From Trichodelitschia bisporula (lineage: Eukaryota): a stretch of 64,000 nt of DNA. The position numbers were made by a program, and so were the translations under genes. The notes beneath the pieces are model-generated. The model did no database searches, was not told the origin of the DNA, and saw only the letters and a program-made list of their open reading frames with translations. Of the stretch, positions 5,475 to 26,118 are shown piece by piece (position 1 is the first letter of the stretch; every line of letters starts with the position of its first letter). The stretch spans positions 231,873 through 295,872 of the forward strand of contig ML996689.1 of the NCBI GenBank assembly GCA_010356995.1, given 5' to 3'.

Positions 5475-6881
5475 TCTGGGATGTGCAAATCACTTTTTGC
5501 AGGGTTGGGTGGAACCTGGGGAAGAGCCTACGGTTCTGGCATATAAGTACGTCGATGATGGGGCGCCGCACGATTCCAGCCTAGGACCTGATGATAAGGT
5601 CTTGCGAAAGGCGGGGCAGATTGGCGTCGGAGGCGTCCCTGCAAGTTCGCTGATCTTCAGCCCAATGGGCGCTTGGAGGTCGATCAAAGTACGGTAAACT
5701 GAGGACAAAGCTGACGCCCGAGGATATTGACGATGCTCTACTTCCGCACGGGCGTGGAGTTCTTATATACGCACTCATTGCTGATGTTCCAGAACGTGGA
5801 GAAGGCCGAAAGGTGTGGGATGTGAGGTTGCAAAGCCGACTGCTGATGTGTGGGAGGCCTGTCGGCGAACAGCGCTAGGCATTTGGTTGGCTGACGAGGG
5901 TGGAGCTCCCCGACGCGGCAGCTTTGAGAGCTTCAAGGACAAGCTCGAGGAAGAGCCGAGCCGCTGGATATCCCGCGACCCCGCCACCCCATGAGTTGCC
6001 GTGGGGAGAGGGGTTGATGGCGCCAGTCGCGGGCTGCAGCTCATGACGAGCCTTGCTGATAAGCGGGCGGCCTCGCTCTACCATTGGCCCAAATGGTGCT
6101 GCGACGGCCGCTTCCGACGATCAATTATGCCGACAGCCTGTCCAAAACAGAGTTTTACAGAAACACTGCGTTGCGGCTGATGATATGCATGGTTTTCTTC
6201 AAAGGTCCAGACGTCGATGGAACATGGTGAGAGATGTGAGAAGAAACTGAGGTACTGATGATATCGAGCAATTGGATAGCCTAATGGGCGATTGATCGCG
6301 TGCCCCCGCTGGCTAGTGCCTACTTGGGGAATCGACTAACTTCTCAAGGCAATGAACCCCCGGCGCTTTACTGATACAATTTGTCAAGGGGAGTATCGCG
6401 ATGCGATGAGACCGAGCAGCTTGTCCCACGATAGTTCACGCCATATCTTCGGGATACCCCGAAAGGCATGAGAGAACATGAGTGGTGCAGCGATAAGAGT
6501 TAGCAGTTCGGTCGCTCGGTCGTATTAAGGGTTGGTAGGCCGTGGGAGTCGAGAGCAGTCGTTTAAAGTCTTGGTGAGGCTTGACCACGAAGATAAGGCT
6601 CGAATGATGCTCGAGGCAGGCAGCTGGAAAGAGATGATGTTCACGATTAACTACATCCGTACAGGACTTCAAAAAATGAGGTGGTAGTGAGCAGGCTTCA
6701 TACGGTATACTCCGTAGAAGACATCTACCAACGGAAGGCAAGTTCGCAGGAGAATGGCTGAATTACAAGCGTCCTATGCGTAGGCAAATCGGCGAATTTC
6801 CTGATATCAGATGTGGCGTTGGATTGATTGACGGACGCACAACAACGCCTTGCATGTTCGGTGTCGCAAGGTCCGAAGCAT

Positions 6882-7060
6882 TTATACAATGGCGGCATTG
6901 AGATAGATGGATCCTGTAGTCATCGTCCATTTGCTCATGTGCTTCTCGACAGTAGGTAGTTTTGGAAAATCCTTGTCTCTATGCTTCCAGAACTTGAGAG
7001 GCATTGCCTTCAAGGGGCACGCACGACGATACCAAGCATTGAGTGATCGCATCCTCTCCA
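6882..7060 (-). pseudogene. Possible decayed hAT transposase C-terminal dimerisation-domain fragment
   Basis: PLKFWKHRDKDFPKL resembles the hAT 'PLxWWK...FPxL' motif. No TIRs or longer ORF found. Confidence 0.35.
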
Positions 7061-7735
7061 GCCCATTGCCCAATGGCCAAGATATCTGTACGGTAGACTG
7101 GAAACCCGACAACAGGGCGGTTCTCATGCAGGGCACCAGATCCCCTCGATGCTCCGCTGCAAGGCACAGATGCCAAACTGGCGGATATGCTCATATCACG
7201 GAGTTGCTACCGTGTCCTTTTGAAACCGATTGTAACCCGTATACGAATGACGCCAGAATAGACACTAGGTCCCTTCGGCGCTAGACCGTGCTATGCGGGA
7301 AGGCGTACGGGGGTTGTGGGGCCGATACGATGCGATATCGGTCGGGCCGTGCGGAATTTGAGGAGTGGATGGTGCCCGACATAGGCCGCCCTCCCGGCCG
7401 ACTTCGGGGGACGGTGGGGTATGGTGGATGCGTATCTATAGGCTTACATGCGAGATGTTCAAATAACGGTATCTCTTAGAATACATGAGCAGCGGGGAGA
7501 TGACGTTGAGTATAGTAACACATTCAGAGAGGAACAGAGCTTGCCCAAGGTTGCTTGAGCACCGGCCTGCACATCAGCATATCTCGTTGAAAACAGCAAC
7601 TCAACACAACGGAAATGGTGCTACATAAATGTGACAAGAAGTAGTAAAGAAGCTTGACAGAGAAGAAGTGAAAGCGGTAGCTATGAGTTAGGGGCGACGG
7701 GAGCTACTGTACACCCTTTGATGACGCCAAAAGAC

Positions 7736-7852
7736 AAAAATATACAGCAGTTGGGATTCGCTGCTGGCCACCCACGCAACTACTAGTCAACCGGTTCAGA
7801 GCTTAACTTCAGTGAGCAGACGGGCACTGGTGTATTCTTAGACCTATGGTCG
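7736..7852 (-). rRNA. 5S rRNA gene, 3' body plus T5 terminator; 5' end displaced by an insertion
   Basis: Minus strand reads CGACCATAGG...CCCGTCTGCTCA...GTTAAGC...CTAGTAGTTGCGTGGGTGGCCAGCAGCGAATCCCAACTGCTGTATA-TTTTT, a typical Pezizomycotina 5S sequence. Confidence 0.92.
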
Positions 7853-9072
7853 CGTTCCGCATTAGGAAATCCGGATTAGGACACCGCCTTCGGCAGCACT
7901 TTAATACGGGTTACCTCATCATGTTATCCTCGCAAAAATACTGTGCTATGCTTGGCCGGCTAGATTTGAATTCGAAAACGTCTTATCTCTGACCTGTGTC
8001 CGTATCCTTAGCTCAATGAGGAAAGTGCTCAATCTGGACTAGCCCATGCATTGTCATCCTTGCTAGCCAATACTTTCCTCCGTCTTGCCGCTAAATCCAG
8101 CGCCAGATTTCCTTCAATTGGAAATTACTGACGTGCTAAGTGATTTTAGATGGGCAGTAACATGTGCTCGTCCTGCCCTCCGCATTGAACCACAACGCCT
8201 CCCTTAAATCGCCCCGTCTTCGGCCCGTCGCCGGCTCCCCTCTCCAGAACCGGCCCGGTTGGACCTGCAAGCGAAGTATCATGACTATCGGAAGGGTCAT
8301 ATCTCAATTAAGCGGGGGCGCCTGTTAGGACCCCTATTCCGTCTTCGCAGTGTCAGCTCTACCTCGACGTGACTCAGGCAACACTACCCCGCACTCCGAT
8401 TCTCCGAATGGGGTGGCTAGGGGGCTAAGTGTGGAGTTGTACCGTGGTGAGGGAAGGGAAGACGAGCCGAGGCAGTGACGCAGGTGGCGAGTGGGTTGGT
8501 GGCACGGGTGAAATTGGTGGCGCGGGTGGAGTTGGTGGCGCGGATGGAGATGGTGGCGCGGGCGGAGGTGGCGCTCCAGAATCGGGCTCTCTGTGTAGGG
8601 TCTCAGATGACAAACATAGGATTATCCGCCTAGCATCCTAACGCAGTTTCACGTCTTTATCACTGGAGGCTAATGAGAGGACATGGTGTACGTAACCGTC
8701 TCCCTTTTCCGGCTTTGATCAGGTTGAGCTAGGGTCTGGTCCCGTCTTCATCAACGCTCTGCTCGACGCAAGAACTGAGAGTGGAAAGCATTGAACACAG
8801 CCACTACATTCCATCATGCCTTCTCTGTGCACTGAAGGAATGGTTAATTCCAGATGTTTTCAGATCCCCTCTGCATTGAAGCCATTACTTCACTAATCTG
8901 GCGACATTTTTGTACGCCACTGTTACCATTTGCTAATGGAGTGCTTGATTTCAAAGCCGTACAATTCCCATTTGTAATCCTTTGCCACTTTCACTCTCAA
9001 AAAGGTATAAAAGGACTAAGACCGCAACGGAGGTGGGTGCGGAGGTGGGTGGGGAGGAGGTTAAGAGAAATT

Positions 9073-12000
9073 TTAGCAAATGAATTCCATGCACAGCACT
9101 CGACCAGACGGACATCCCAAGCCAACCTTACCCTCGTGGACAGCGACAGCTTGAGCTCTCGCACTGCGATACTCGGCTGGAAGCCAAAGAAGCCTTTCCG
9201 TGCCCCTGGCTACCCATTGCTCCTGGACAATTATGGACCGTGGAAGATTCGATGCCGACGCCAGCTGCTTGCCGTCCGGCGAGAAGGCCACGGCNNNNNN
9301 NNNNNNNNNNNNNNNNNNNNNNNNNNNNNNNNNNNNNNNNNNNNNNNNNNNNNNNNNNNNNNNNNNNNNNNNNNNNNNNNNNNNNNNNNNNNNNNNNNNN
9401 NNNNNNNNNNNNNNNNNNNNNNNNNNNNNNNNNNNNNNNNNNNNNNNNNNNNNNNNNNNNNNNNNNNNNNNNNNNNNNNNNNNNNNNNNNNNNNNNNNNN
9501 NNNNNNNNNNNNNNNNNNNNNNNNNNNNNNNNNNNNNNNNNNNNNNNNNNNNNNNNNNNNNNNNNNNNNNNNNNNNNNNNNNNNNNNNNNNNNNNNNNNN
9601 NNNNNNNNNNNNNNNNNNNNNNNNNNNNNNNNNNNNNNNNNNNNNNNNNNNNNNNNNNNNNNNNNNNNNNNNNNNNNNNNNNNNNNNNNNNNNNNNNNNN
9701 NNNNNNNNNNNNNNNNNNNNNNNNNNNNNNNNNNNNNNNNNNNNNNNNNNNNNNNNNNNNNNNNNNNNNNNNNNNNNNNNNNNNNNNNNNNNNNNNNNNN
9801 NNNNNNNNNNNNNNNNNNNNNNNNNNNNNNNNNNNNNNNNNNNNNNNNNNNNNNNNNNNNNNNNNNNNNNNNNNNNNNNNNNNNNNNNNNNNNNNNNNNN
9901 NNNNNNNNNNNNNNNNNNNNNNNNNNNNNNNNNNNNNNNNNNNNNNNNNNNNNNNNNNNNNNNNNNNNNNNNNNNNNNNNNNNNNNNNNNNNNNNNNNNN
10001 NNNNNNNNNNNNNNNNNNNNNNNNNNNNNNNNNNNNNNNNNNNNNNNNNNNNNNNNNNNNNNNNNNNNNNNNNNNNNNNNNNNNNNNNNNNNNNNNNNNN
10101 NNNNNNNNNNNNNNNNNNNNNNNNNNNNNNNNNNNNNNNNNNNNNNNNNNNNNNNNNNNNNNNNNNNNNNNNNNNNNNNNNNNNNNNNNNNNNNNNNNNN
10201 NNNNNNNNNNTGTCCCACGATGCCGACGCCAGCTGCTTGCCGTCCGGCGAGAAGGCCACGGCGGAGACCGCTTTCGAATGGCCCTCGAGCGTATTCAGCA
10301 AGGCACCCCAGTTGTCCCTAACCTGCGGTAGTACGGGCATCCGCAGAGGCATTTTGCTTTGAAACCGCCTTTTTACAAGACTTGCTGTCGGGGAAAATAC
10401 CAGCGCGCTGCAATATGTCTGCAAGGGAGCTACTTCGATGGCTGACCGGTTGTAGAGGACAAATCGTTTCATGTCATGAACAAACTCCGATAGTCGCGGA
10501 CACCTCTGCGCCTGAGCCAAGTATCAGCCAAGTATCCCCACTCTGCTTTACGTCCAGCTTACCGATATCATGGACTCCAAAGACACGATGGCATGGAACC
10601 CTTCGGAAACCTTTTGCATCCATCCAAGCGCCTCAAGCCAATGAAGAAGATGCTCCTTCAGGAACTCATGAACTTCACCGTCATCGTTGAGCTGAGATCC
10701 ACTCTTATGAAGATGCTGTATCCAGTAGAGGCATGCGTACTGCTTCTCAGGATGGAGGGAGCCTTCAACCTCATGACTGTCGACCTCGGTCTTGAGTACT
10801 CCAGGCCGACCTATTCCAAGCATGTCCTGCGTGAGGAAGTCTGACATGACCTGTATGCATTTCGTGGCAAGGGCTTGATGCGCTTGCTTTTCATCGACCC
10901 AGAAACCTGTATCTCCGCTTCTCTTCGAGTCGAGAAGGAAGTCGCGGAATGAAGGGTGATGTAAACGGAGTGCGTCATCTGGTTCCTTTGGAATGTCCAA
11001 AATGGCATGAAGATCACCCAGTGCCTGTCCCGCATTCTGGTCGAGTAGCCTGCTCAAGGACGGGATGGAAAGTGAATTGAATAGGATCACGATACCTCCA
11101 AGCAGTTCCTTCAATGTAGATTGCACCTCCTCTGCATCATCGCCTTCATAGTTGGTAAGAGATTGGCGAAGAACAGTCGCGTAGATCTCGTCGAGATGCT
11201 GTTGCGGCCCTTTCACAGTACTGTGGCTTTGATCGAGGATCAAGCCTAGTTTCTTGGGAGCCAATATTCTTCCTTGTTCAACAAAACGGCATGCAGTTTC
11301 AGCCCAGATGAACAGACCACTAGCGTTCCGGACAAGTGAGTCGATGGCTTGCTCGCCTGGCCAATCTTTGTCAAAAGAGTGTTTGCGGGCTAAACGCTCG
11401 AGCTCGTGCCGTAGGAAGAAGCGGATATCATTGTCAACAGTCGACTTCTTAATGTCGTGGAGCACAAAGTCCAGGTGCTCGCTCGTTGGCATTTCGGATA
11501 AAGAAAACCGGATTGGCACTTCAGGTCTACTCGTTAAAAACAGCCGGAGCCGGGTTTTCTTCAGCAACTGAAAGAGATTCAGAATTTTCCCTATGCCATC
11601 CTCGCCCTCGCATTCGTCCAGGGCATCGACCACCAGGATGTACGGAGCAGAGGAGGTGTCGCCTTCGAGCTTCGACATGGGACCGAGGACGAGATGATGC
11701 CACTGACTGCGGATAGGCTCTTCAATGATGGTGTCTCGCTCCTTCAGAGCCTTGTAGAGAGACCACTTTGCCCCCGGCACATTGTCTGCAAGTTGCGCTG
11801 CGATGCTTGTCACGAACTTGCCGGCATGCCGGACATCTGCGCCACTTCGCGAGAAGAAGAAGCTGGCTCCAAGCCTTCCGTTCTCAAAACATTCGGCGGC
11901 CACAGTTTGAGCCACGGTGGACTTGCCGGTGCCAGCTAAACCACTCAACCAGAAAATATTTGGCGAGTTCTCCCCGTCAGCCCAGGCGTAGATCTCTTTG

Positions 12001-13208
12001 AGAAGTTCGACCCGGGTACCAATCAGGCAAGGCGCCTTTTCCCGCTCGTATGGGTTGGATGGTGTGTCTGCGGCCCTGGGCAAGTTTAGGAGCATTGCCG
12101 GCGCGGGTGGATCTTCTGGTATCTCGACTTTGACCGGCGGGAGCAACAACAAAAGCTCTTTAGCGTACGCTGCCGCCGTCCCCGCCGCGAATGGCTGCCA
12201 GCTCTTGTTCTTGTGAGAGTCCGAGTAGTCGCAGATTCCCCGCACAGGCAGACATGGAAAATCGTTCATCACCCCGGCGGCTTCCATTTCGAAGCACAGG
12301 ACGCCTCCGAGTTTCTCACTGACTTTGTCTCGTTCCTTGGCATCGCGCATGACTTGATTCCCCGAAGCGATCGTACCATAGTGAACCAAGACATGTTCAC
12401 CACGCGTCTGGCGCCGCACGCTATATTCTTTCTTGCAATTATTGCAGTTTTCCTCTTCCTCCTCATGGTTGTACGCAGGGTCGTATAGGATATCTGGCCC
12501 GGCCTTGTCGCGAGCGAAAAGAGACTGGCTGCTGAGCTTTGCAAGGTGATGTAGGAAACCAACGCTTCCTTTCAGATGGCTTGCTTTCAGACTCTTCAAC
12601 GCGCTCAGCAAGGCCTTTGGGGGCGCGTTCAGGAATCCAGTTCGTTCAACCCCGTCAGGCCTGGTCTTGCCCAAGTCGTACTGAATCACTCCGCCACAAT
12701 CCTTGGACGGCCAGCAAACAACAACGTCCCCAAGTCGGATGTCGGCTTTTGCGCTCGGCACACCGCCTCCGATGCCGACCAAGACGCCGAATTGAACCGA
12801 AGTGAAAGTTGACTTCATTTGAGCAACCGCCGAGGCCGCCGAGTTTGTGCCCATCAGCCCCAAGACCATGATGACCGTATTGTGTTCGCCAACGCGGCCG
12901 AGCGTGTAGCTATTGGGATCGGACGCGTCCCGGGGGAGAGGTTGGTGCTCTTCGTCGAGCATCTCCTGGGCTGCTGCAAGTTCAATGTCAAGCGCGCAAA
13001 TCCACCCTACTGTGTAGTCTTCGTGACGAAGTCGGCGGGTTGGCTTCCTGTCGGTGGTTCTCTGGAGGGCAAGTGGTAAGGTTGAGGTCTGGCTGACGTT
13101 GCTCGCGGGGGCAGGTGTGGTGGTCTCACCAGCAACAGGTGAGGGTCGTGAAAGACTGGAAGAGGCATGGAAGCGGCCCCGTGTCCAGATCCGCTTTGCA
13201 GGTGGCAT
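9073..13208 (-). CDS. Fungal NLR: PNP_UDP_1 nucleoside-phosphorylase effector + HET-E-like NACHT + WD40 array (copy 1). Intron 10512-10562; WD array partly in N gap 9295-10210.
   Basis: PNP_UDP motifs YTVGWICAL..E, VGIGGGVP, IRLGDVVV, HYGTIASGNQV, CFEMEAAG, RGICDYSDSHKNKSWQ. NACHT P-loop GLAGTGKST and Walker B VVDALDEC. WD repeats LEGHSKAVSAVAFSPDGKQLASASWD. First ATG at 13208; an upstream exon is possible. Confidence 0.92.
9295..10210. other. Assembly gap (916 N) inside the WD40 repeat array
   Basis: The same 44-nt WD-unit sequence flanks both sides (9251-9294 and 10219-10262). Confidence 0.97.
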
Positions 13209-13662
13209 CTTGGAAATAATGATGCTAGTCAAGAAATTGCGGACTTGTGAAAATGCAGGAGTGGAACTGGAGGTTAAAGGCGAGGCTTTGGGGCTTCGAG
13301 CTGAGCTCAACTGCGGGGCAGAATGCCAAGAATGAGGCTGTGAGCTGTCGGGCGCGGAGAGGACGAGATTGGAGACACAGCCACATGCTACGGGGCATCA
13401 AGTTCTCCTACGAACTGATCAGTTCATAGACGAAGACTTCGCTGGAGGACATACCCAGTTGTTCATCCATGTTGCACCGCCCACGCTGCTTGCGTCGTCT
13501 ATGCCCGCGTCGTAGGTGCTGTACGGGATATCGAGACTGACCAGGGCTCGAGCATAAACAGGCTCGGGAGGATGCCGGAGTGGCGGTCATGGTTTTTGGT
13601 GGGAGTTTGGCAGCGTAGTGAGGGACAGACGGAGCATATAGACTGTTCTGATTGAGGAGATA

Positions 13663-13804
13663 TGTTGAATTTGTAGCGGCAACCTGGGGTGGCTGGAGCG
13701 GAGCCAGGAGACAGGGATCGTCTCCTGGTGAGGTATATAGTCAGCTCACTTCCCACTGTTAGTCAACTAAGCAACTCAGTCATGTTCACACTTCATTTTA
13801 AACA
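13663..13804 (+). mobile_element. Solo LTR (same family as Copia 3' LTR 16171-16311) with 5-bp TSD AGATA
   Basis: TG...CA termini; AGATA at 13658-13662 and 13805-13809; the paralogous site near 22835 is empty with a single AGATA. Confidence 0.93.
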
Positions 13805-14243
13805 AGATATGTAGTTGATTCTGTGGCAGAGGTGGCCGGATAATGTGTAAGATGGGTGTTAGCAAGCGTCCTGGTGCTGGATTAAAGGCTCAATTGGAGT
13901 TGAGCAGACGACATCATATCAGTCATACTGCATCGTGTCTTCAGCGCGGGACTCGAGAAACGTACAGTATCATGGAACAATTGAGCCCGCGGGAGCGTGC
14001 GGCCATTCCAACTGCGAAGGAAAGGCCTCATCCCCATCGAGGAGAAACGATTGTCCATCCACAACTCCACAACTTGTCGTCAACAGACCAACATTGGCAA
14101 AAGGTTGAAGGGATAGACGGCGCCTAGCTTCCCCTCGAACTAGCCTAGCGGCCCCTCCCGTCAATCAAGCGGCCCCATGTGGCCCGTATCTATCGCATTC
14201 CCGGCCTCGCAAGTACTCCATCCCACCACCTCTTCGTTTGCGA

Positions 14244-14417
14244 TGTTAAAAGGGGATGTGTGATCAATGGAAACATCACAGCATCATAAGTTGGACCAAA
14301 GGTCTGTCCATGAACAAGTTGCTTAATTGTCAAAGAGGTGGGGATCTCGAGTCTACTTATACTCGAGCGCTGTGGCTGAAACTGGGTGAGGCTAAACACA
14401 GCCACCGCATTCCAACA
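14244..14417 (-). mobile_element. 174-bp LTR, inverted copy of LTR 14812-14985
   Basis: TGTTAAAAGGGG...TTCCAACA is the reverse complement of 14812-14985. It marks the point where homology between the two large repeats ends. Confidence 0.9.
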
Positions 14418-14985
14418 GCGACAACCAAGGAGCGATCGCCCTGGCCAAGAACCCGCAGTTTCACCCGAGAACAAAGCACATAGGCATTCAGCACCACTAC
14501 GTCAGGGAGAAGCAGGCATCCGGAGAGATTGACCTCCAGAGAAGCGGGTTGCTGATGGCCTTACAAAAGCCTTGCCAAAGGATCGCTTCGAACAGTTCAG
14601 GGAGGCATTGGGTCTTGAATGGGCTCGCACCAGGTGAGGGGGAGAAGGGAACCATGAGGATCGGTCTATCTGCCGCCCCTCCTTGTGTAAGTCCAGGCAC
14701 TCTTTCCCTCACAGAGGGTTTTAACGAGGCCTGGCCGTCTGTCCATGTGGGAGCTTCGTGTCTTTGTGAGCGTACCCCTGGCCTTTTCACTGGGTTTCGT
14801 CTGAGGGGGAGTGTTGGAAAGCGGTGGCTGTGTTCAGCCTTACCAAGTTTCAGCCACAGGGCTCGAGTATAAGTAGACTCGGGATCCCCACCTCTTTGGC
14901 AATTAAGCAACTTGTTCATGGACAGACCTTTGGTCCAACTTATGATGCGGTGATGTTTCCATTGACCACACCTCCCCTTTTAACA
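14418..14985 (+). mobile_element. Ty1/Copia 3' fragment 1: RNase H remnant, PPT and 3' LTR (14812-14985)
   Basis: DNQGAIALAKNPQFHPRTKHIGIQHHYVREK. Polypurine tract GAGGGGGAG lies immediately before TGTTGG...TAACA. Confidence 0.9.
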
Positions 14986-16311
14986 GATCGTGCCAGCACC
15001 CGATGACTTCCAGGCCCCTCAGAGCCTCAAGACCTGGTACGCCAAAGCGATCGGTTGCCTCATGTATGCCATGCTTGGTACTAGACCCGACATCGCATAC
15101 GCTGTCTCCATCTGCAGTCGCTTCCTCGCGAACCCCGGACCCCAGCACGAAACGGCGGTCAAGAGGATCTGTCTGAGGGTTCGTCGTGGAAACTAGCAGT
15201 GGCTGCTGCTCGAGCCAAAACCAATGTATCAATTGATCTCTGACTGACTAGCTCGACCTCCGAATGAGGTCGGGAATGAGTGACTATATACACAACGTCT
15301 GACTTCCAGCATCTTCCATCGATCTGACCAATTTGTCAGGAAGAATACTCCAGATACTCAATTTGTCATCATAGAAGATTCTAGATCTTCATCCCGCAGT
15401 GGCTGGGTGTATACCGTCATTGCTCAGTCTGACAGGATCTTTCGCTACCTTCGGGGCACCATGGAGGTGGAACTTGTGTACCGCGGATCGCTGGAGACTC
15501 TGGCTGGTTACACCGACTCTGACTGGGCTGGGGATTCATCCACGAGGCGATCAACGGCCAGATACATCTTCAACCTCGGCAGTGGAGCAGTAAGCTGATC
15601 ATCGAAGCGCCAGAGTGTTGTTGCGTTGTCATCATGCGAAGCGGAATACATGGGGCAGACGCAAGCAACAAAGGAAGCTGTCTGGTTGCGCAACCTACTC
15701 AAGGAGCTTCTCAAACACGATGAGCCAGCAGCTACTGTCATCTTCGGAGACAACCAAGGCGCCATCTCGCTGGCAAAGAACCCCCAATTTCACGCCAGAT
15801 CGAAGCACATCGCCATCCAGCACCACATTGTACGCGAGAAGCAGGCGGAGGGGGTCATCGACATGCGGTACATCTCGACGAAGGAGCAGATCGCTGACGG
15901 ACTCACCAAGACCTTGCCAAAGGATCGCTTTCCGGCTTTCAGGAAAGCCTTGGGGCTGGAGTGTCGCTTTGGGCGGGAACGCAATGGGTAAACGCTTCTG
16001 GCACTCTTTCCCCTCGCTTTTCCCACAGGATTTTTGAGGGTTTAATGAGGCCAGACACTGCCAACCCCTTCTTGTTTTTGTCTCTCTTGGAGTTTATTCC
16101 ATCCCGGGACATGGGAGGCAGTGGGAGCTCACTGTTGGTGCACTTCCATCCACCTCGGTTTGAGTGGGAGTGCTGAATTTGTGGCGGCAACCTGGGGTGG
16201 CTGGAGTGGAGCCGGGAGAGAGGGGTCGTTTCCTGGCGAGGTATATAGTCAGCTCACTTCCCACTGCTAGTCGATCAAGCAACTCAGTCAAGTTCACACT
16301 TCATTTTAACA
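14986..16311 (+). mobile_element. Ty1/Copia 3' fragment 2: RT C-terminus and RNase H pseudogene, PPT and 3' LTR (16171-16311)
   Basis: IGCLMYAMLGTRPDIAYAVS, GYTDSDWAGD, in-frame TGA at 15596-15598 (expected Trp), SSCEAEY, DNQGAI, QIADGLTK. GAGTGGGAG precedes TG...TAACA. Confidence 0.93.
15170..15434. mobile_element. 265-bp solo LTR inserted in Copia RT, TSD GGATC
   Basis: TGTC...GACA termini; GGATC at 15165-15169 and 15435-15439. Excision restores AVKRI-FRYLRGT. Confidence 0.93.
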
Positions 16312-17479
16312 GAATGCGAGAAACAGCAGGAGTATTGTGGGATCAAAGATGAGCTCCACTGTCTCGGTAAGAATGTGGGCGGTTCTTGTAGAAGATTATT
16401 AGCATGCAAATGCCAAACTGAAGTTACTTACGATCTGGGATTTCGCTCGTATCCTTTGTGAAAGACAAGGTTTGATTTCCAGAACCAGCTTCTGTCTCAT
16501 CCGTTCGGAATCGCGGACTAAGAAGAGCCTGACATGCTCATAACGAAGAACTTTGGGTAGTTCCCCATGACCTTGTTTGGCGTACACCGGCTCTAGCAAT
16601 GCCGCTGGCCTTGTTGCCGTAGCCATCGAAATCAGTATAACCAAGGTGACTTGGACTCGTAACCTCTCGTTGGTATACTGCAGTCTGTCCCATTTCCAAA
16701 GGTGGTTGAGAAGGATGGCCATATCGGCAAAGCTTAGGACAGGCTTCTGTTAGACGGATTCCCATTTGTTACAGCCTTCTGATATTGTAAGTTCCTGTAT
16801 CACTTCGCGCCCGGTATCTTTGTAGCCGGTATCCGTTAAGCGCTCGGGATTGCTTACCTCCGTTGTCTTGTTTCATCGTATCTTTGGCTCGACGCCACTC
16901 CTGTTTCATATTTCCTATATAGTACGAGTTGCCCACATGGTACACTCGACAGTTCAGTCTACGTCAATCAACAGAAACCTTTGTTTCATCTGTTCTCAGC
17001 TTCTCCAGTCCAACAGCTTCGGCTGCCGTTCTCTACTGAGTCCATGCTCAGAGGCTAGATTCAAAGAGATGAACTATACAAAATTAGTTTCGAGTTTATC
17101 AAGATGAGTCTCTTACTGAATTGACACGCCTCCTGTCCTCAAGGCTCCACACTCGGTGATGTGGTATTTGTCTTCGAGCGGCGTGCCACCGGTCATAGTA
17201 GACGTTAATAGTTATCTCTTTTCGGATTCCCTTTCGCGTGTCCAAAGTCCATTTCAGGAACAACATAACCAGCTCAGGGTCAGCCTCCGCCATACACTTT
17301 TCAGGGTCACTGAAAAGTGCATCTCCATTAGGAATATCGGAGGTTCGTGCAGCTTCACAGAACTCTTTCCATTGATGGCGGGTTCGGCTCAGGTTGTGTT
17401 TTGACGATTTTGAGTATCTTGCCTCCACTCGGCAGCTTTTCAGCCTAGAGAGAAGGTGAGCGAAGTTTTGCGTCGACAT
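16312..17479 (-). pseudogene. DUF3435 tyrosine recombinase (Starship captain), truncated. Introns 17116-17074 and 16431-16385; solo-LTR insertion; one frameshift near 16473.
   Basis: Reconstructed peptide ...WKEFC...FLKW...FISLNLASEHGLSRERQPK|PVLSFADMAILLNHLWKWD..YTNERLRVQVTLVILISMATATRPAALL...LRYEHVRLFLVR...LEI/NLVFHKG...ELIFDPTILLLFLAF matches the DUF3435 pattern (ER.RVQ, TxxRP, KG, FDP...LAF). The C-terminal half is lost at the Copia LTR. Confidence 0.85.
16748..17015. mobile_element. 268-bp solo LTR inside captain exon 2, TSD GCTTC
   Basis: TGTT...AACA termini; GCTTC at 16743-16747 and 17016-17020. Removal restores RQPK-PVLSFAD. Confidence 0.92.
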
Positions 17480-17816
17480 TTAGATCGAGGGCAGAAGGTT
17501 GACTTCTGAACCTGCAGTGGTCTTCGGGGATATTTAAGTCAGAGCATTAACTAGTTTACCTCCTAGCCCTCCTAAGGACCATCTAACAACGCCCCTACCG
17601 AAGGCATCTAAGGACGCCTTATTCGTCGTCCTGGAAATTTGAGAAGTTGAAAAGAAGAATCGACAATTCCCTTACGTAGTCGCGCGCTTAATAATGGCAA
17701 CTTTCATTGGACGATATTCGCCAAGCCTGATGACAAAGGATATATGACGGCAGTGTAAATTCAGAGTTTTACCAAATTGGGACGCGACCATAGATACACT
17801 CTCTGATCTATGGCCG

Positions 17817-20800
17817 CGTTCCGCATTAGGAAGTCCGGATTAGGACACCGCCCTCGGCAGCACTTTAATACGGGTTACCTCATTATATTATCCTCGCAAA
17901 AATACTGTGCTATGCTTGGCCGGCTAGATTTGAATTCGAAAACGTCTTATCTATGACCTATGTCCGTACCCTTAACTCAATGAGGAAAGTGCTCAATCTA
18001 GACTAGCCTATGCATTGTCATTCTTGCTAGCCAATACTTTTCTCTGCCTTGCCGCTAAATCCAGCGCCAGATTTCCTTCAACTGGAAATTACTGACGCGC
18101 TAAGTGATTTTAGATGGGCAGTAACATGTGCTCGTCCCGCCCTCCGCATTGAACCACAACGCCTGCCTTAACTCGCCCCGTCTTCGGCCTGTCGCCGGCT
18201 CCCCTCTCCAGAACCGGCCCGGTTGGACCTGCAAGCGAAGTATCATGAGTATCGGAAGGGTCATATCTCAATTAAGCGAGGGCGCCTGTTAGGACCCCTA
18301 TTCCGTCTTCGCATTGTTAGCTCTGCCTCAACGTGACTCAGGCAACCCTACCCCGCACTCCGATTCTCCGAGTGGGGTGGCTAGGGGGCTAAGTGTGGGG
18401 TTGCACCGTGGTGAGGGAAGGGAAGACGAGCCGAGGCAGTGGCGCAGGTGGCGAGTGGGTTGGTGGCACGGGTGAAGCTGGTGGCGCGGGTGGAGTTGGT
18501 GGCGCGGATAGTGATGGTGGCGCGGGCGGAGGTGGCGCTCAAGAATCGGGCTCTCTGTGTAGGGTCTCGGATGACAAACATAGGATTATCCGCCTAGCAT
18601 CCCAACACAGCTTCACGTCTTTATCAATGGAGGCTAATGAGAGGACATGGTGTACGTGACCGTCTCCCTTTTCCGGCTTTGATCAGGTTGAGCTAGGGTC
18701 TGGTCCCGTCTTCATCAACGCTCTGCTTGACGCAAGAACTGGGAGTGGAAAACATTGAACACAGCCACTACATTCCATCATACCTTCTCTGTGCACTGAA
18801 GGAATGGTTGATTCCAGATGTTTCCAGATACCCGTTGCATTGAAGCCATTACTTCACTGATCTGGCGACATTTTTGTACGCCACTATTACCATTTGCTAA
18901 TGGAGAGCTTGATTTTAAAGCCGTACCATTCCCATTTGTAACCCTTTGCCACTTTCACTCTCAAAGAGGTATAAAAGGGCTAAGACTGCACCGAAGGTGG
19001 GTGGGGAGGGGGTTAAGAGAAATTTTAGCAATTGAATTCCATGCACAGCATTCGACCAGACGAATACCCCAAGCCAACCTTGCTTCCGTGAACGGCGACA
19101 TGTAGCGGATTGCGATACTCGACTGGAAGCCAAAGACATTTTCCGCACCTATGGTCATCCATTCCCCGACAATTCTGAAACGTGGAGGATCTGATCCGGA
19201 ACCTGGCAACTGCTTGCCGTCCTGCCAGAATGCCACGGCGTTGATATCCGAATGGCCCTCGAGCGTCTGCAGCGCCTTTCCCGAGCCGGCGTCCCACAGC
19301 CTGACCGTCGAGTCCCACGATGCCGACGCCAGCTGCTTGCCGTCCGGCGAGAAGGCCACGGCGCTGACCCCTTTCGAATGGCCCTCGAGCGTATGCAGCA
19401 AGGCATCCCAGTTGTCCCTAACCTGCGGTAGGCCGGGCATCCACAGAGGCATTTGGCTTTGAAACTGCCATTTTACAAGTCTTGCTGCCGGAGAAAATAC
19501 CAGCGCACTGCAATATGTCTGCAAGGCAGCTAGTTCGATGCTGACCGGTTGTAGAGGACAAATCGTTTCATGTCATGAACAAACTCCGATAGTTGGGACA
19601 CCTCTGCGCCTAAGCCAAGTATCAGCCAAGTATCCCCACTCTGCTTTACGTCCAGCTTACCGATATCATGGACTCCAGAGACGCGATGGCATGAAACCCT
19701 TCAGAAACCTTCTGCATCCAGCCAAGCGCCTCAAGCCAATGAAGGAGATGCTTCTTTAGAAACCGATGGACTTGGTCGTCATCTCTAAGCTGAGAACCGC
19801 CCTTCTCAAAATGCTGCGTCCGTCCCTGCGCCTTCACCCAACGAAGGAGGCGTTTCGGCAGGGACCGAGAGATTTGGCCGTCATTTTTAAGCTGGGAGCC
19901 GCCCTTCTCAAGATGCTGGATCCAGTAGAGGCATGCGTACTGAACTTCGGGAGGAGGACATCGGTCGACTTGACTCGGCTCTGTATCTGTTGCAAGTGCA
20001 CCTGGTTGGCCGATCTCCAATTGGTCCTGCTTCAGGAACTTACACATCAGGTCCATGCAATTTGTAGCAAGGGTTTGATGCGCTTGCTCCTCGTCTACCC
20101 AGAAACCCGTATCTCCGCTTCTCCTCGAATCGAGAAGGAAGTCACGAAACGAAGGATGATGTAAGCGGAGTGCATTGGCTGGCTCTTCTGGAATGTCCAA
20201 AATTGCGTGAAGATCATTCAGTGCCCCATTCACTTTAGATTGGGGGATTTTGAGAAGCCCACTCAAGGATTGGGCGGAAAGTGAATTGAACAGGACCACG
20301 ATGCTTCCAAGCAGTTCCTTCAATGTGGATCGCAGCTTCTCTGCATCATCGTCTTCATAGTCGGTAAGGGATTGGCGAAGAACAGTCGCGTAGATCTCGT
20401 CGAGATGCTTCTCTGGCGCTTTCACAGTACTATGGCTTTGGTCGAGAATCAAGCTCAGTTTCTCGGGAGCCAATGCTTTTCCCTGTCGAATAAAGCGGCA
20501 TGCGGTTTCGGCCCAGATGAACAGGCCACTGGCATTCCGGACAAGAGAGTCGATGTCTTGCTCGCCTGGCCAATCTTTGTCAAAAGAGCGTCCCCGGGCT
20601 AGACGTTCGAGCTCGTGCCGTAGGAAGAAGCGGATATCATTGTCAACAGTCGACTTCTCAATTCTGTGGAGCACAAAATCCAGGTGCTCGCTTGTTGGCA
20701 TTTCGGATAACGGAGACCGGATTGACACTTCAGGTCTACTCGTTAAAAACAGCCGGAGCCGGGTTTTCTTCAGCAACCGAAAGAGATCCAGAATTCCCCC

Positions 20801-23800
20801 TATGTCGTCCTCGCCCTCGCATTCGTCCAGGGCATCGACCACCAGGATATGCGGAGTAGGGGAGGCGTCACCTTCGAGCTTCGACATGGGANNNNNNNNN
20901 NNNNNNNNNNNNNNNNNNNNNNNNNNNNNNNNNNNNNNNNNNNNNNNNNNNNNNNNNNNNNNNNNNNNNNNNNNNNNNNNNNNNNNNNNNNNNNNNNNNN
21001 NNNNNNNNNNNNNNNNNNNNNNNNNNNNNNNNNNNNNNNNNNNNNNNNNNNNNNNNNNNNNNNNNNNNNNNNNNNNNNNNNNNNNNNNNNNNNNNNNNNN
21101 NNNNNNNNNNNNNNNNNNNNNNNNNNNNNNNNNNNNNNNNNNNNNNNNNNNNNNNNNNNNNNNNNNGAGAAGTTCGACCCGGGTACCAATCAGGCAAGGC
21201 GCTTTTTTCCGCTCGTATGGGTTGGATGGTGTGTCTGCAGCCCTGGGCAAGTTTAGGAGCATTGCCGGCGCAGATGGATGTTCTGGCATCTCGACTTTGG
21301 CCGGCGGAACCAACAATAGAAGCTCTTTAGCGTACGCTGCCGCCGTCCCCGCCGCGTACGGCTGCCAGCTCTTATTCTTATGCGAGTCCGCATAGTCGCA
21401 TATTCCCCGCACAACAAGGCACGGAAAACTGTTCATGAGCCCCGCCGCCTCCATCTCAAAGCAGAGTACGCCTCCAAGCTTCGTGCTGACTTTGTCTCGT
21501 TCCTTGGCATCGCGCATGACTTGGTTCCCGGAGGCTATGGTGCCGTAATGGACAACAACATGCTCACCGCGCGGCTGCCGCCGTACCACGCACTCTTTCC
21601 GGCACTTCTGGCAGTCGTCCGGTCCTCCCTCATGATTGTAGGTAACGTGGTATAAATCATCTGGTCCGGCTTTGTCCCGTGCAAATCTTGGGTACTGGGC
21701 GAGCTTCGAGAGAGAGTGTAAGAACCCGACTCTCTCTCGGAGGTTATTCGCCTTTAGGGTTGCTATCGCCTTCAGGAAGACCTGCGGGGGAATTGAGGGA
21801 TCCAGTCCGTTCAAACTTGTCTGGTGTCGTCTTGCCGAAGTCGTACTGCACTACTCCGCCGTGATCCTTGAACGGATGACTGACGACGACATCCCCAAGC
21901 CGTAAATCAGCTGTACTCGGCACACCACCTCCGATGCCCACTATCAGGCCGAGCCGGACAGAGCTGAATGCCAACTGCATCTGGGCAGCAACCGAGGCTG
22001 CCGCATTGGTTCCTATTTGGCCTACGGGTAGGCACGCAATCACGACATTGTGTCCACCGATGCGGCCAAGTACATAGACGTTGGAATCAGCCGCATTCTG
22101 AGGGAGACTCTGATGTTCCTCATCTAGCATATCTTGAGCTGCCGCAAGTTCCATCGGGAGAGCGCATATCCATCCTATTGTATAGTCTTCATGACGAAGT
22201 CGGCGGGCTGGCCCACTTTTAGTGGCTCTCTGAGGGGCAAGTGGTAAAGTTGAGGTCTGGTCGACACTGCTCGTGGGGGCAGGTGTGATGGTCTCGCCAG
22301 CAACAGGTGAGGAGGGCCGTGAAAGGCCGGAAGAGGCACAGAAGTGGCCCCGTATCCGGATCCGCTTTGCAGGTGGCATCTTGGAAATAATGATGCTAGT
22401 CAAGAAATGGCGGAGTTGTGAAAATGCAGGAGTGGAACTCGAGGTTAAAGGCGAGGCTTTGGGGCTTCGAGCTGAGCTCAACTGCGGGGCAGAATGCCAA
22501 GAATGAGGCTGTGAGCTGTCGGGCGCGGAGAGGAGGACGAGATTGGAGGAGACACAGCCACATGCTACGGGGCATCAAATTCTCCTACGAACTGATCAGC
22601 TCATAGACGAAGACTTCGCTGGAGGACATACCCGGTTGTTCATCCATGTTGCACCGCCCACGCTGCTTGCGTCGTCTATACCCGTGTCGTAGGTGCTGTA
22701 CGGGATATCGAGACTGACCAGGGCTCGAGCATAAACAGGCTCAGGAGGATGCCGGAGTGGCGGTTATGGTTTTGGGTGGGAGTTTGGCAGAGCAGTGAGG
22801 GACAGACGGAGCATACAGACTGTTCTGACGGAGGAGATACATAGTTGATTCTGTGGAAGAGGTGGCCGGATAATGTGTGAGATGGGTGTTAGCAAGCGTC
22901 CTGGTGCTGGATTGAAGGCTCGATTGGAGTTGAGCAGACGACATCGTATCAGTCATGTTGTATCGTGTCGTCAGCGGGACTCGAGAAACATACAGTACCG
23001 TGGGACAATTGAGCTCGCGGGAGCGTGCGGCCATTCCAACTGCGAAGGAAAGGCCTCATCCCCATCGAGGTGAAACGATTGTCCATCACAACTCCACAAC
23101 TTGTCGTCAACAGACCAACAATGGCAAAAGGTTGAAGCGCTAGACAGCGCCTAGCTTCCCCTCGAACTAGCCTAGCGGCTCCTCCCGTCCATCAAGCGGC
23201 CCCACGTGGCCTGTATCCATCGCATTCCCGGCCTCGCAAGTACCCAATTCCACCACCTCTTCGTCTGCGAATAAACCGCGCCCAGCTCTCCCCTCGTCGA
23301 ATGGGCTATCGGAAATTACCTAGGCATACCCGCAGCAAGTCACGCCGCGCAAAGCCTTACGTATCAGCGTATCGCTCCCAGTGTGCAAACCTTCACCGGC
23401 GACTACCCCACCGCCCCCCGCACCTTCACGCAGCCGCCTTCTAGCAACCTCTCCCGCACAGCCCCTCCTGCGGCCCAACGGATAACCTCTACTACTACCA
23501 GCAGCTGCAGCAACTCATCCGGTGGTCGCAAGCAAAACTGCCCCCAGTTCCCGACCCCCCCGCAGCACCGCCGAAACCTCCGCCAGTTCGTGACCCTCGC
23601 ACCTCCCTACTCCCATTTCTCGTCTAGGCGCCCGCATAACCCACACACACCCACGTCCTAACCCTGACCCACCGTGGCTTCGTCCATAGCACTGGCTCCC
23701 CCTCGGAAGCCAGCCTAATCACTAACGCCATCTCCCTGCTGACCAGCACGCTGCCCCTCCCCCCGAAACGGCTCCTCCCGCGCACGCCGCACAAAATTCG

Positions 23801-24388
23801 CGCTCCCAATATCTGGTACCACGAACGTATGCTGCCCGTGCGGCACATTACGGTCGCTAATCAACTTCAGGCCCAGCAACGAGCCCTCGTACGCCCCCGT
23901 CCTCATCCGCCAGCGCGCCCGACACGCCCGCCTCAATGCCCCACGCGAGCCAAATAGGCAGTCTGTGCTCGGGCAGCGTGGCTGCTAGGGCGAGATCAGG
24001 CGAAAAGGTAGGCGAGGCAAGGGGTAAAGCGAGGTGAAGAAGTGGGCAAGACGAAGGGGCGGGCGAGACGAAGGGATGGGCGAGACGAAAAAGCGGCATG
24101 CGGGAGGACGCATTGAGGCGGCAGCGATGGAGAGACCCCAGAGGGGCACGAGGCGGAAGCTAGACAAAGTAGCGGAAGGCTGATTCTCGATGCTGGGTAA
24201 GCCGCTTTATAGATTTTCTAATTTATAAAATTCGTCCGCTGGAATTTGCTAGCCATCACCAGGGATACTGAACACTCTAAGCGCCCGACTTCTTGGAAGC
24301 CTGCATTGGGGAAATCTGACGCTAGAAACGCGGTTACAAGCCGCCGGATTTGGCGGCTATTTCCCCGGGGACACAGGTATATGTCTGT
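17817..24388 (-). mobile_element. Starship-like element, unit B: no captain seen, carries NLR copy 2
   Basis: Shares its terminus and ~5.4 kb with unit A. Bounded by cores at 17805-17816 and GACCTATGGCCG at 24389-24400. Confidence 0.78.
19025..22379 (-). pseudogene. PNP_UDP-NACHT-WD40 NLR copy 2, frameshifted, with only ~2 WD repeats. N gap 20892-21166 covers the P-loop region.
   Basis: Same domain motifs as copy 1. Single-base losses near 21790, 19596, 19540 and 19142 split the frame; some fall in homopolymers, so assembly error is possible. Confidence 0.8.
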
Positions 24389-24405
24389 GACCTATGGCCG
24401 TATGT
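24389..24405 (-). rRNA. 5S rRNA gene 5' fragment (ACATACGGCCATAGGTC)
   Basis: Joined to the body at 7840-7740 it gives a 118-nt 5S RNA. ACATACGGC can pair with the 3' GCTGTATAT to form helix I. Confidence 0.85.
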
Positions 24406-24717
24406 GCTTGGAGATGGTGAAGTTGAATTGATAAGGAAAAAATTTAAAGCCGTTGGCACGTCAAGGAAAAGAAGCTCAGCAGCGCCACACTCAACATCGC
24501 GACCGGAGGATAAACGGCCCGTGACCATGGTGAGCAACGTGCTTCAGGCGTAAACAGACCAAACGTAAGGAGCAGAAGACCCAAAAATCAAAAGTATGTA
24601 CGGATGTGCCAATTCCTCCAAATAGACAAATCTGACAAAATTAGAATGCTGAGATCATTACAACGCGTTGACCGCAAAAAATTCCCCTGCCAAACTTCAC
24701 CCTGATGCTCAATCGCC

Positions 24718-26118
24718 ATGGCCAGCCAAACAGGCAGCTCGCAGCTGCCATCTTCATCTTTCCGTAAGCTCGAGTCCAGGAAGATTTATGTTCAGCTAAG
24801 TTGATGCTGCCCAGACCGACTCCCCACCATCTCCGCATCTCAAGCGCTCAAGCAATCCAATGACGCCGGCACACGCGCCATCTCCACAGGTCTCCCGCAG
24901 CTCGACACCATCCTTCTCGGTCCGCAGGAGCGTAGCCGCAGCTCACAGCGCGCAGGCGGACTGGCGCGCGGGCAGGTAACAGAGATGTATGGACCTCCAG
25001 GCGTCGGCAAGACTGCGTTTGGGTAGGTGAACCCCGTACGCTGTTGAGTTACCAGGTCAAGCGCTGACCGAGCAACAATCAGCATTCAAGCTGCAGCTTC
25101 AGCCATTCACGCTGGACACAAGGTTGTCTGGCTTGGTGAGTGGATCGGCCGCGCCTGGGTCTCGACTGACGGTGCAGATGCGGCGACGCCCCTTGCATTT
25201 CCCCGCCTTGAGGCCGTCATCGCGGCTGCTGGGGATGGAACGCGCTCCCCGAAGGAGCTCATGAGCATGGTGCATCACTTTGCGGTACCGACGCTTGCGC
25301 ATCTCCTCGCGTTGGTGCTACATCCCGTTCCATCCTTCCCTCCGCCTGGTACGGGCTTGATAGTCGTGGACGCCGTATCGCTGCTCTTTGAAAACGCCTA
25401 CGAGAACGACCGCCCCAAAGGCACCAAGAACGACGCCAAGTGGCTGAGTGGCCGCAGATACGCCATTCTGGGCGAGCTGATGTCGAATCTAGTCCGCATG
25501 GCGACGCGGGGTAATCTCGCCGTTCTGCTTACTAGCCAGACGTCCACCAGGGTGCGGACTGGCCTGGGCGCGCTTTTGATGCCGTCGATATCGGAACGCG
25601 AATGGGAAGCTGGCGTCTCGACGCAGCTCGTGCTGTTCCGGGACAGGCCACCAAGGGGCACGGAGGATGGGCCTGACGCTGAGAAGTGGCGGGGCTTGCG
25701 ATACGTTGGTGTCATGAAGGTCAAGGGCGTGTCGATGGCCGTGGACGGGCGCTTTGAGACGGTTGTCCCGTTTACGATTCTCAAGGCATGTAGCCTCATT
25801 CTAGCTATCGTTGTCTAACCCCAGTAGACTGGTCTCCACGAGCTCCAGGCTCCCGAGAGCATCAAAGTCCCGATCATCTCCTCGCCGACTCGGCCCCCGA
25901 AACGCCCGTACGACGAAGTTCCCGACTCCGATCCCGACGCTCATCCAGACGAGCTACTTTCGGATGATGATTGGATTTGGGACGATGCTGAGGTAGTACC
26001 CGAAAAACTGGCAGACGCGGGCGCGGACGCGGGTACCGATGGGGGCGCAGGTATCACCACAGACGCCAGTCCATCCGCCCCGGACACCAGTCCGCGCAAC
26101 GAAAACGCACCTCCATAG
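24718..26118 (+). CDS. RAD55: RecA/Rad51-paralogue DNA repair protein (Rad55/Rhp55-like), multi-exon
   Basis: HRLPTISASQAL, ISTGLPQLD, GGLARGQVTEMYGPPGVGKT (Walker A), LIVVDAVS (Walker B), KRPYDEVPDSD tail. Introns start at 24764, ~25023, ~25136 and 25786 (GC donor). Confidence 0.82.

Follow-up and report, generated by a model that had tools for sequence, protein, structure and literature searches.

A 5S rRNA gene of Trichodelitschia bisporula interrupted by a probable head-to-tail pair of compact, decayed Starship-related elements carrying NLR genes

The analysis was carried out on 64,000 nucleotides of Trichodelitschia bisporula contig ML996689.1, referred to as the window. A single 5S rRNA match was disclosed by Rfam in the window (RF00001, 7857..7739, minus strand, 71.7 bits at a gathering score of 38), the last five nucleotides of which (7853-7857) are the end of an inserted element and not 5S body. 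The true first 17 nucleotides of the 5S gene reside at 24405-24389, also on the minus strand, 16.5 kb away from the body. Between them lie two units, A and B, and the locus as a whole is situated between a xanthine/uracil permease gene and a Rad51-like gene. The following features were identified:

7739..7852, minus strand: body of the 5S rRNA gene, covering 5S nt 6-119 and with them the leftmost copy of the 12-nt repeat; RF00001
7841..7852, plus strand: direct repeat copy 1, GACCTATGGTCG, which read on the minus strand is 5S nt 6-17
7844..7869: terminal inverted repeat at the left end of unit A (26 nt, 77% complementary), pairing with 17768-17793
7853..7990: 138-nt terminal module common to units A and B (95% identical)
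7853..17804, minus strand: unit A, 9,952 nt including 916 N, with captain remnant, transposon debris, NLR gene, 3′ region and terminus
9076..13208, minus strand: NLR gene of unit A (PNP_UDP, NPHP3_N/NACHT, WD40), start mapped by P0003 and C-terminus by P0007
13663..13801: 139-nt segment that unit B lacks; it copies 16171-16309 at 91%, a stretch adjoining the end of the captain remnant
14244..16170, plus strand: transposon debris next to the captain remnant, only in unit A and highly repeated in the genome
16309..17479, minus strand: remnant of a DUF3435 tyrosine recombinase (captain), N-terminal part only; PF11917
17768..17793: terminal inverted repeat at the right end of unit A, pairing with 7844-7869
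17779..17822: head-to-tail junction overlapping repeat copy 2, with two 17-nt inverted arms (15/17 complementary) and a 10-nt spacer
17805..17816, plus strand: direct repeat copy 2, GATCTATGGCCG
17817..24388, minus strand: unit B, 6,572 nt including 275 N, with NLR gene, 3′ region and terminus as in unit A
19028..22379, minus strand: NLR gene of unit B (PNP_UDP, NPHP3_N, WD40), built as in unit A, with the N run 20892-21166 inside
23271..24388: segment only in unit B, without Pfam or Rfam match, unlike 14244-17793 of unit A and repeated in the genome
24389..24405, minus strand: 5′ end of the 5S rRNA gene (nt 1-17), including repeat copy 3 (24389-24400, GACCTATGGCCG)

The original prediction of a 5S gene split by a 16.5-kb insert was borne out by the RF00001 body and the separate 17-nt start on the same strand. 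As assembled, the 5S sequence exhibits three non-canonical positions in helix I (pairing 6/9), because its first ~11 nucleotides derive from the inserted element. Computational rejoining of the two halves yielded a 5S of 119 nt, one nucleotide longer than the predicted 118, whose helix I pairs at 8/9 positions as had been anticipated. In a contig of single-copy depth from a source run, position 7833 is joined to 24389 with eight other letters between; therefore, an uninterrupted 5S copy in the genome has the same start as 24405-24389. This paralogous copy is the single indication in the data of a site without the insert.

A 12-nt direct repeat, GAYCTATGGYCG, corresponds to nt 6-17 of the 5S gene and is present in exact plus-strand copies at 7841, 17805 and 24389, which delimit the two head-to-tail units. 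Allowing one mismatch, the motif gave five matches at 0.94 expected, a number reached by none of 100 shuffles. The exact match at 17805 confirmed the proposal that a third copy of the core divides the insert into two units arranged head to tail. Directly after the 138-nt terminal module a degenerate target-like motif was found, at 7991 in unit A and at 17955 (GACCTATGTCCG) in unit B. Other genomic copies lack this module, since in contigs the 5S body passes from 7796, 7831 or 7839 straight into 7986 or 7990. A search of the module as a small RNA gave no Rfam match at E ≤ 1 except 5S. Two further candidates were discarded: a PYLIS_1 match at the right end (20.4 bits at a threshold of 70), and a third terminus at 39292-39307, a motif match with two mismatches that lacks any likeness to the element around it and was taken as chance.

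The profile check for a DUF3435 captain in unit A was positive, the match lying on a fragment (E = 2.1e-11, 43.9 bits, cut-off 25.8). The open reading frame covers positions 3-85 of the 418 profile positions and a search of the translation frames extended this to 3-114, so that the catalytic part is absent. In all five full-length captains (5/5), no residue beyond 320 took part in the alignment to the window. The start codon of the remnant is located 314 nt inside the high-coordinate end of unit A, which in the orientation of the 5S gene is the element's 5′ end, and the frame reads inward on the minus strand like the 5S gene. Thus, the predicted DUF3435-like gene just inside the start of the left unit is indeed first in its element and directed inward; it resides at the high-coordinate end, and only as a fragment. 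The remnant is 92.6% and 85.5% identical to P0001 (NCBI: T. bisporula gene 534970), and the closest named proteins are from T. bisporula as well; the nearest full-length captains found are only 27-33% identical. The adjacent debris contains two fragments which, judged from their translation and lacking a Pfam match, resemble the end of a Ty1/copia pol gene, and a 174-nt inverted repeat (14244-14417 / 14812-14985). Over the debris the depth of the contigs was high, with loose contig ends at positions 14244 and 14417.

No recombinase was detected in unit B by Pfam searches of the six frames of 23201-24400 and of the remaining open reading frames. Positions 7841-14243 of unit A align to 17805-23270 of unit B at 82-92% identity, the backbone common to both units being 92-98% identical. 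The high-coordinate parts (14244-17793, ~3.5 kb, in A; 23271-24388, ~1.1 kb, in B) are unrelated except for the last ~25-40 nt, where unit B near 24367-24381 contains a degenerate inverted repeat resembling the right end of unit A, as judged by eye from the alignment. Unit B is therefore not a simple deletion derivative of unit A. That 23271-24388 might represent a diverged captain region was rejected: sensitive blastn gave no match at E below 0.2, tblastn with P0001 aligned only 16 amino acids in a non-colinear manner (E = 0.53), and the six frames were devoid of Pfam matches. RIP was likewise rejected as the source of the divergence between A and B, as dinucleotide indices were normal and changes symmetric, without CpA bias.

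The element is not restricted to this locus. Sequencing data came from two runs that are possibly the source of the assembly and are not independent of it; a third run, which stems from another organism and has a share of words of 0.05, yielded 73 contigs, short and of low depth. In the source runs the flanks had depths of 423 and 214, while the bins of the insert summed to 7,247-246,001 and 4,243-117,289, values that represent summed contig depth and not copy number. From run X1, 9,104 contigs aligned at a likeness of at least 80%. Three types of joints, each on one to four short contigs, tie a 5S body directly to the interior of the element in the same orientation. Hence the element family is repeated in the genome and present in other 5S copies. 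This bears on the question whether a mobile element has to be assumed at all. An ordinary NLR cluster could lie beside scattered 5S pseudogene fragments, the DUF3435 piece being unrelated transposon debris; no more than a fragment of the captain is present, local expansion is typical of NLR families in fungi, and Pezizomycotina have dispersed 5S genes. We consider such a constellation extremely improbable, since the two 5S pieces lie on one strand and complement each other exactly as halves, the 12-nt core together with about 300 nt of terminus is present at two junctions, inverted terminal repeats exist, and the interior of the element also adjoins other 5S copies.

Each unit harbors one gene, an NLR, as had been predicted, to which unit A adds the captain remnant. 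Both NLRs have the build of fungal NACHT-type receptors, namely an N-terminal effector domain (PNP_UDP), a NACHT nucleotide-binding domain (NPHP3_N/NACHT) and C-terminal repeats (WD40). In unit A, the reading frame 10551-13397 matched NPHP3_N (4.3e-29), PNP_UDP (1.4e-07) and NACHT (1.8e-07), and the gene is open as far as assembled, the N run 9295-10210 interrupting its WD40 repeats. The NLR of unit B exhibits a frameshift near 21786-21790, where P0003 alignments break (21786/21790). Among 8,000 database proteins scored against the NLR, 7,098 matched at E ≤ 1e-20, with names such as 'Pfs, NACHT and WD domain protein' and 'HET-E-1'. The same three-domain build is known from fungal Pfs(PNP_UDP)-NACHT-WD40 NLRs related to HET-E, the WD40 repeats being alike to a degree at which the assembly breaks, and we see no difference in kind; special are the location on a mobile-element backbone and the mosaic divergence. 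Between A and B, patches of the NLRs are only 58-85% identical and have evolved under purifying selection; embedded in a backbone of 92-98% identity, they indicate that the NLRs are mosaics.

The protein of the unit A NLR is 93% identical to P0002, encoded on another scaffold, and only ~80% to the NLR of unit B, which argues against a recent local duplication. A rival history has one integration only: the second unit would have arisen locally, through unequal crossing-over or through ectopic recombination between members of the family, and later undergone gene conversion with paralogs at other places. The similarity of the common backbone and the mosaic NLRs are in line with this history, a repeated family makes ectopic exchange possible, and the 139-nt internal duplication and the rearranged debris in unit A reveal that the locus has been rearranged. 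Nevertheless, we regard it as unlikely, because the middle junction does not look like a random break, having the right end and the left terminus both complete with the 12-nt repeat between them, as from a site-specific event, and because the captain-side parts of the units are unrelated.

Attention was also paid to the assembly. Its N runs (9295-10210, 916 nt; 20892-21166, 275 nt) each lie within one NLR gene, and an identical 45-mer is present on both sides of the first. The scaffold order is insecure because both gaps fall inside repeated NLR genes; thus, the order 5S body - A - B - 5S start is given as assembled across them. The tandem might be a scaffolding artefact in which the gap-free piece 10211-20891 stems from another family copy and the real locus contains one unit, a reading to which the gaps, the 45-mer, the many near-identical contigs and joints between the WD40 regions of A and B would correspond. 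Set against these, the middle piece continues the interrupted NLR genes colinearly at both ends, and the second gap is close in size to the 317 nt of unit A at the equivalent place. We therefore think an artefact of this kind quite improbable. Furthermore, the junction joining the right end of unit A to the left end of unit B lies within 10211-20891, and since these are two different units, a tandem exists somewhere in the genome.

We conclude that two compact, decayed members of the Starship superfamily, joined head to tail and site-specific for nt 6-17 of the 5S gene, probably make up the insert. Because no intact captain is present, we infer recombinase-mediated integration from the anatomy of the locus; the order of events and any present activity are inferences as well. 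A DUF3435 captain would move the family into nt 6-17 of 5S genes in a single orientation. Recombination within the core common to element and target would leave the 12-nt core at both junctions, so that a second element or a second recombination event could reuse it, creating a tandem whose central junction has joined ends (attP-like). Successive integration is a plausible route to the tandem, one of several. Unit A would then have lost the catalytic part of its captain, retrotransposon debris marking the break. With a truncated captain in A and none in B, both units are immobile unless a captain acts in trans. Thus, neither unit is a working Starship, and the original description of two small Starships did not find support as it stood. 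The term 'cassette-like array' proved fair for the anatomy; a cassette mechanism did not find support.

Starships are defined as regions bounded by target-site repeats with a DUF3435 sequence at the 5′ end (Gluck-Thaler et al. 2022, PMC9156397). Target-site direct repeats bound both units (7841, 17805, 24389), an inward-reading DUF3435 sequence in that position was found in unit A only, and a complete, catalytically competent tyrosine recombinase in neither. Annotated Starships range from 15 to 511 kb, the smallest having 15,020 bp (PMC11162782), and the units with their 9,952 nt (including 916 N) and 6,572 nt fall below this range. That 5S rDNA is an established target is in agreement with the literature (PMC11162782, PMC9156397); it accounts for 23% of the curated insertion sites, with repeats of 6-16 bp (PMC11162782). 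The 5S-targeting Starships belonging to the families Enterprise, Arwing and Voyager likewise insert into the 5S coding region near its 5′ end, possess inverted terminal repeats and a direct repeat matching 5S (12 nt here, 6-16 bp reported), and carry the DUF3435 captain first and reading inward, with NLRs among their genes. The Voyager repeat GCCCTGTATTCT, however, lies 20 bp from the 5S start (PMC9156397), and the core determined here, nt 6-17, is not this sequence but is located directly 5′ of the Voyager site. Voyager also comprises ~91 kb with dozens of genes, compared to one gene in units of 6.6 and ~10 kb, and its captain is typed fam10, while the paralog of our captain remnant is fam01 (starfish supplement). 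This paralog, P0001, was assigned to fam01, the Phoenix captain family, from a partial protein of 215 amino acids (starfish supplement), so that the Phoenix family would contain a T. bisporula captain fragment 86-93% identical to the remnant. In contrast to the units in 5S rDNA, the Phoenix family is reported to favor AT-rich sites (PMC11162782), and the Phoenix element has 195 kb and the repeat TTTACA (starfish supplement). Among the repeat cores listed in that supplement, a search for CTATGG or CATAGG gave zero or irrelevant matches, which is weak evidence of absence.

Degraded Starships, the 'Derelict' regions, have likewise lost the captain and kept accessory genes such as NLRs (PMC9156397, PMC11162782), and NLRs are conserved accessory genes of Starships (PMC9156397). 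Tandem and nested insertions have been reported, too (PMC9156397, PMC11162782). Unlike 'Derelict' regions, the captain-less unit B retains both termini and the target repeat, and its family occupies several 5S copies. In appearance, unit B is closer to a compact non-autonomous derivative than to a giant that has eroded. In the literature searched, no description of miniature or non-autonomous Starship derivatives was found. Starships being known as giants, a repeated unit of 6.6-10 kb with termini, a 5S core and a single NLR would demonstrate that compact derivatives exist, as most transposon superfamilies produce them; the units are probably non-autonomous. They would also connect a site-specific mobile backbone with the way in which a group of NLR paralogs has spread. 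The locus contributes a 5S target core, nt 6-17, unlike the three cores among those listed in the starfish supplement, and it resides in a genome for which the annotations listed by the starfish study, an automated procedure, contain no element. Among mobile elements of a known kind, the example presented here is broken and unusually small, and its practical value is modest because the copies are broken and the evidence all derives from a single assembly. One may go further and envisage a family of Starship derivatives of ~6.5-10 kb with the NLR as sole passenger, which sits in several 5S genes at nt 6-17, stacks head-to-tail at the regenerated core and, on a near-identical backbone, swaps patches of the NLR effector domain and linker between copies. 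We advance this as a doubtful, though not far-fetched, extension; if true, a recombinase-borne 'NLR cassette' system would help to diversify the immune-receptor repertoire of a fungus.

An analogy between Starships and bacterial integrative and conjugative elements (ICEs) has been drawn (PMC9156397). Features in common between the locus and the ICEs and IMEs at tRNA genes are a recombinase of the tyrosine type, a target that is a conserved RNA gene, the regeneration of the core on either side, and an attP-like middle junction in tandem arrays. ICEs and IMEs at tRNA genes are known to form such arrays by tandem accretion. Our element differs in its eukaryotic host and in restoring no well-pairing 5S start (helix I 6/9). 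Cryptons, small tyrosine-recombinase transposons with a Crypton-type recombinase as sole gene and without terminal inverted repeats, were also considered and rejected, since the piece of recombinase found here has its matches in DUF3435 and in a captain typed by starfish, and since the element possesses inverted terminal repeats as well as an NLR passenger.

The window contains a 5S rRNA gene split by two head-to-tail inserts, unit A on the left and unit B on the right. In the single assembly, whose order spans two N runs, this locus is a decayed, non-autonomous tandem of Starship-type elements. The original prediction of two small Starships integrated successively at one 5S site was right in kind but overstated both the certainty of successive integration and how intact the elements are: neither unit harbors a working captain, the DUF3435 tyrosine recombinase that moves Starships.

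An Rfam scan of the whole 64-kb window disclosed 5S as the sole family above threshold, with a minus-strand match at 7857..7739 scoring 71.7 bits (gathering score 38 bits). Helix I of this match exhibited three non-canonical positions because its first ~11 nt belong to the end of the inserted element and not to 5S. The 17-nt start of the gene lies at 24405-24389, read on the minus strand. Joining of the two halves by script gave a 5S gene of 119 nt, in which helix I paired at 8/9 positions versus 6/9 as assembled. The 12-nt motif GAYCTATGGYCG, corresponding to 5S nt 6-17, has plus-strand copies at 7841, 17805 and 24389. With up to one mismatch, five matches were detected versus 0.94 expected, and 0/100 shuffles reached five. 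The coordinates first assigned to the split gene and the repeats are correct. The units are laid out as follows.

Features of the tandem (window positions)
7853-17804: unit A
17817-24388: unit B
7844-7869 vs 17768-17793: terminal inverted repeats of unit A, 26 nt, 77% complementary
9295-10210: N run in unit A, inside the NLR gene
20892-21166: N run in unit B, inside the NLR gene
14244-14417 and 14812-14985: 174-nt inverted repeat, 94% complementary, 394-nt core with a short copia-pol-like fragment
16171-16309 and 13663-13801: 139-nt duplication in unit A, 91% identical

By alignment, unit A (7841-14243) is colinear with unit B (17805-23270) at 82-92% identity, and the right end of unit B is, by eye, a degenerate form of that of unit A. 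The A/B junction, which falls in the gap-free stretch 10211-20891, contains a 17-nt inverted pair (15/17 complementary) whose 10-nt spacer overlaps the 12-nt repeat; its shape is that of recombinase-substrate ends joined together, a likeness that is no proof of function. The N run at 9295-10210 is bordered on either side by an identical 45-mer within the WD40 repeats. Past the stop codon of the NLR, the conserved 3′ region of each unit holds an 18-nt tandem repeat of ~4-5 copies (8479-8589 in A, 18443-18535 in B).

The left unit had been predicted to carry a DUF3435 gene. A match was indeed obtained, but to a remnant lacking the catalytic part. Its minus-strand ORF 16402-16749 scored 43.9 bits to PF11917 (cut-off 25.8 bits), and with translation past its stops the match extended over profile positions 3-114 of 418. 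The start of the gene, at 17479, lies 314 nt within the high-coordinate end of unit A. In all five full-length captains (613-747 aa) from an exhaustive HMMER search, no residue beyond 320 aligned to the window, and therefore the catalytic part is absent. In unit B, 23271-24388 gave no Pfam or Rfam match and, except in its last ~40 nt, no likeness to the captain-side part of unit A.

The stretch 14244-17793 is present in unit A alone and includes, on the plus strand, two fragments resembling the end of Ty1/copia pol, a label read from their translations with no Pfam match. Depth bins covering the 174-nt inverted repeat summed to ~180-260 times that of the flanks, the peak value outside the WD40 repeats. 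At exactly 14244 and 14417, contigs broke off into differing loose ends, which marks it as a discrete repeat of high copy number (solo LTR or MITE-like). Of the two 139-nt copies, one adjoins the captain remnant's end; the second is situated upstream of the NLR at a place with no counterpart in unit B.

Each unit carries on the minus strand an NLR, an immune-type receptor gene, which combines PNP_UDP and NPHP3_N/NACHT domains with WD40 repeats. The frame is open throughout the assembled part in unit A; in unit B it changes near 21786-21790, and each of the three segments of this gene is free of stop codons. No RIP signature was found between units A and B. Identity between them forms a mosaic.

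Identity of unit A to unit B
A 7841-9040: non-coding backbone, 93-97%
A 10662-11300: region after the NACHT domain, 60-85%
NACHT part: 90-93%
A 12150-13190: PNP_UDP domain, 58-83%
A 13191-14243: non-coding backbone, 92-98% (87% in one window with 23 aligned positions only)

Three NLR segments, which take in better-conserved sequence too, gave dS values of 0.45-0.84 and dN/dS values of 0.18-0.29 between A and B. Judged by these values, the divergent patches look like old paralogous sequence introduced by recombination, rather than the outcome of in-place decay. Compared with the NLR of unit B, a copy on a different scaffold is the nearer match to that of unit A, and this speaks against the whole unit having been duplicated locally in recent time.

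The nearest named proteins are from Trichodelitschia bisporula itself. The NLR model P0005 is 100% identical across its overlap with the window gene. P0002 shows 93% identity to the NLR of unit A, and P0003 88-94% to the N-terminal part of that of unit B. P0001, a 215-aa partial captain on a separate 8.4-kb contig, matches the remnant's two main exons at 92.6% and 85.5% identity. Further captain-fragment proteins share scaffolds with NLR paralogs; P0122, a 126-aa exon-1 fragment, lies on a 1.58-Mb scaffold in common with P0002 and P0003. Tables S1-S4 and S8 of the starfish supplement, looked up by term, assign this genome eight recombinase hits (five of them ≤339 nt), three counted captains and no annotated element, and place gene 534970 (P0001) in fam01, to which the Phoenix captain belongs, and Voyager in fam10 (PMC11162782).

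To study repetition in the genome, contigs of the sequencing runs X1 and X2, possibly the assembly's own source, were placed on 6100-26000 at ≥80% likeness (9,104 contigs in X1). Flank depth was 423 and 214, and every covered bin within the insert summed to 7,247-246,001 (X1) and 4,243-117,289 (X2), sums that do not equal copy number. This excess shows that the whole unit is repeated, non-coding termini and B-only segment included. Three joint types (1-4 contigs each, single-copy depth) connect a 5S body at 7796, 7831 or 7839 directly to 7986 or 7990 in unchanged orientation; thus, the element sits in other 5S copies without its first 138 nt. A degenerate copy of the target motif comes after this 138-nt terminal module and, together with the joints, points to repeated use of the same core. 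A single-copy-depth contig of these runs connects 7833 to 24389 with 8 other letters in between, so the genome also contains an uninterrupted 5S paralog whose start is identical to 24405-24389. The paralog differs at these 8 letters beside the core (5S nt 18-25), so that two 5S variants may exist in this genome, as is reported for the Voyager host. Run X3, whose label names another organism, yielded a 230-nt contig (depth 2.6) identical to the left flank (6379-6608) and low-depth contigs 90-98% identical to element parts; these could stem from a relative or from carry-over between libraries.

The tandem belongs to a kind of system already known. By definition, a Starship is a region whose borders are target-site repeats and whose 5′ end holds a DUF3435 gene; NLRs count among the conserved accessory genes. 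Of the curated insertion sites, 23% fall within 5S rDNA, where no fewer than five distinct positions are used and the repeats measure 6-16 bp; for Voyager, the insertion point is 20 bp from the start of 5S. Both tandem and nested insertions and degraded captain-less regions are known, and the smallest annotated Starship has 15,020 bp (PMC9156397, PMC11162782). Three 5S-targeting repeats listed in the starfish supplement differ from the motif found here (PMC11162782). Miniature or non-autonomous derivatives were not found in the literature searched. Compact size, the lone NLR passenger, recurrence in further 5S copies and the mosaic contrast of backbone and NLR set this tandem apart and make it worth a full-genome census.

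A RAD55 gene had been proposed next to the 5S start. The gene at 24880-25815 (plus strand) has a Walker-A motif and weak KaiC (E 0.0033) and Rad51 (E 0.085) matches compatible with this, but both are sub-threshold and do not establish its identity. Two further genes are ordinary flanking genes:

3907-5322, minus strand: xanthine/uracil permease (PF00860, 2.8e-68)
31009-32487, minus strand: Mem_trans family transporter (PF03547, 1.8e-17)
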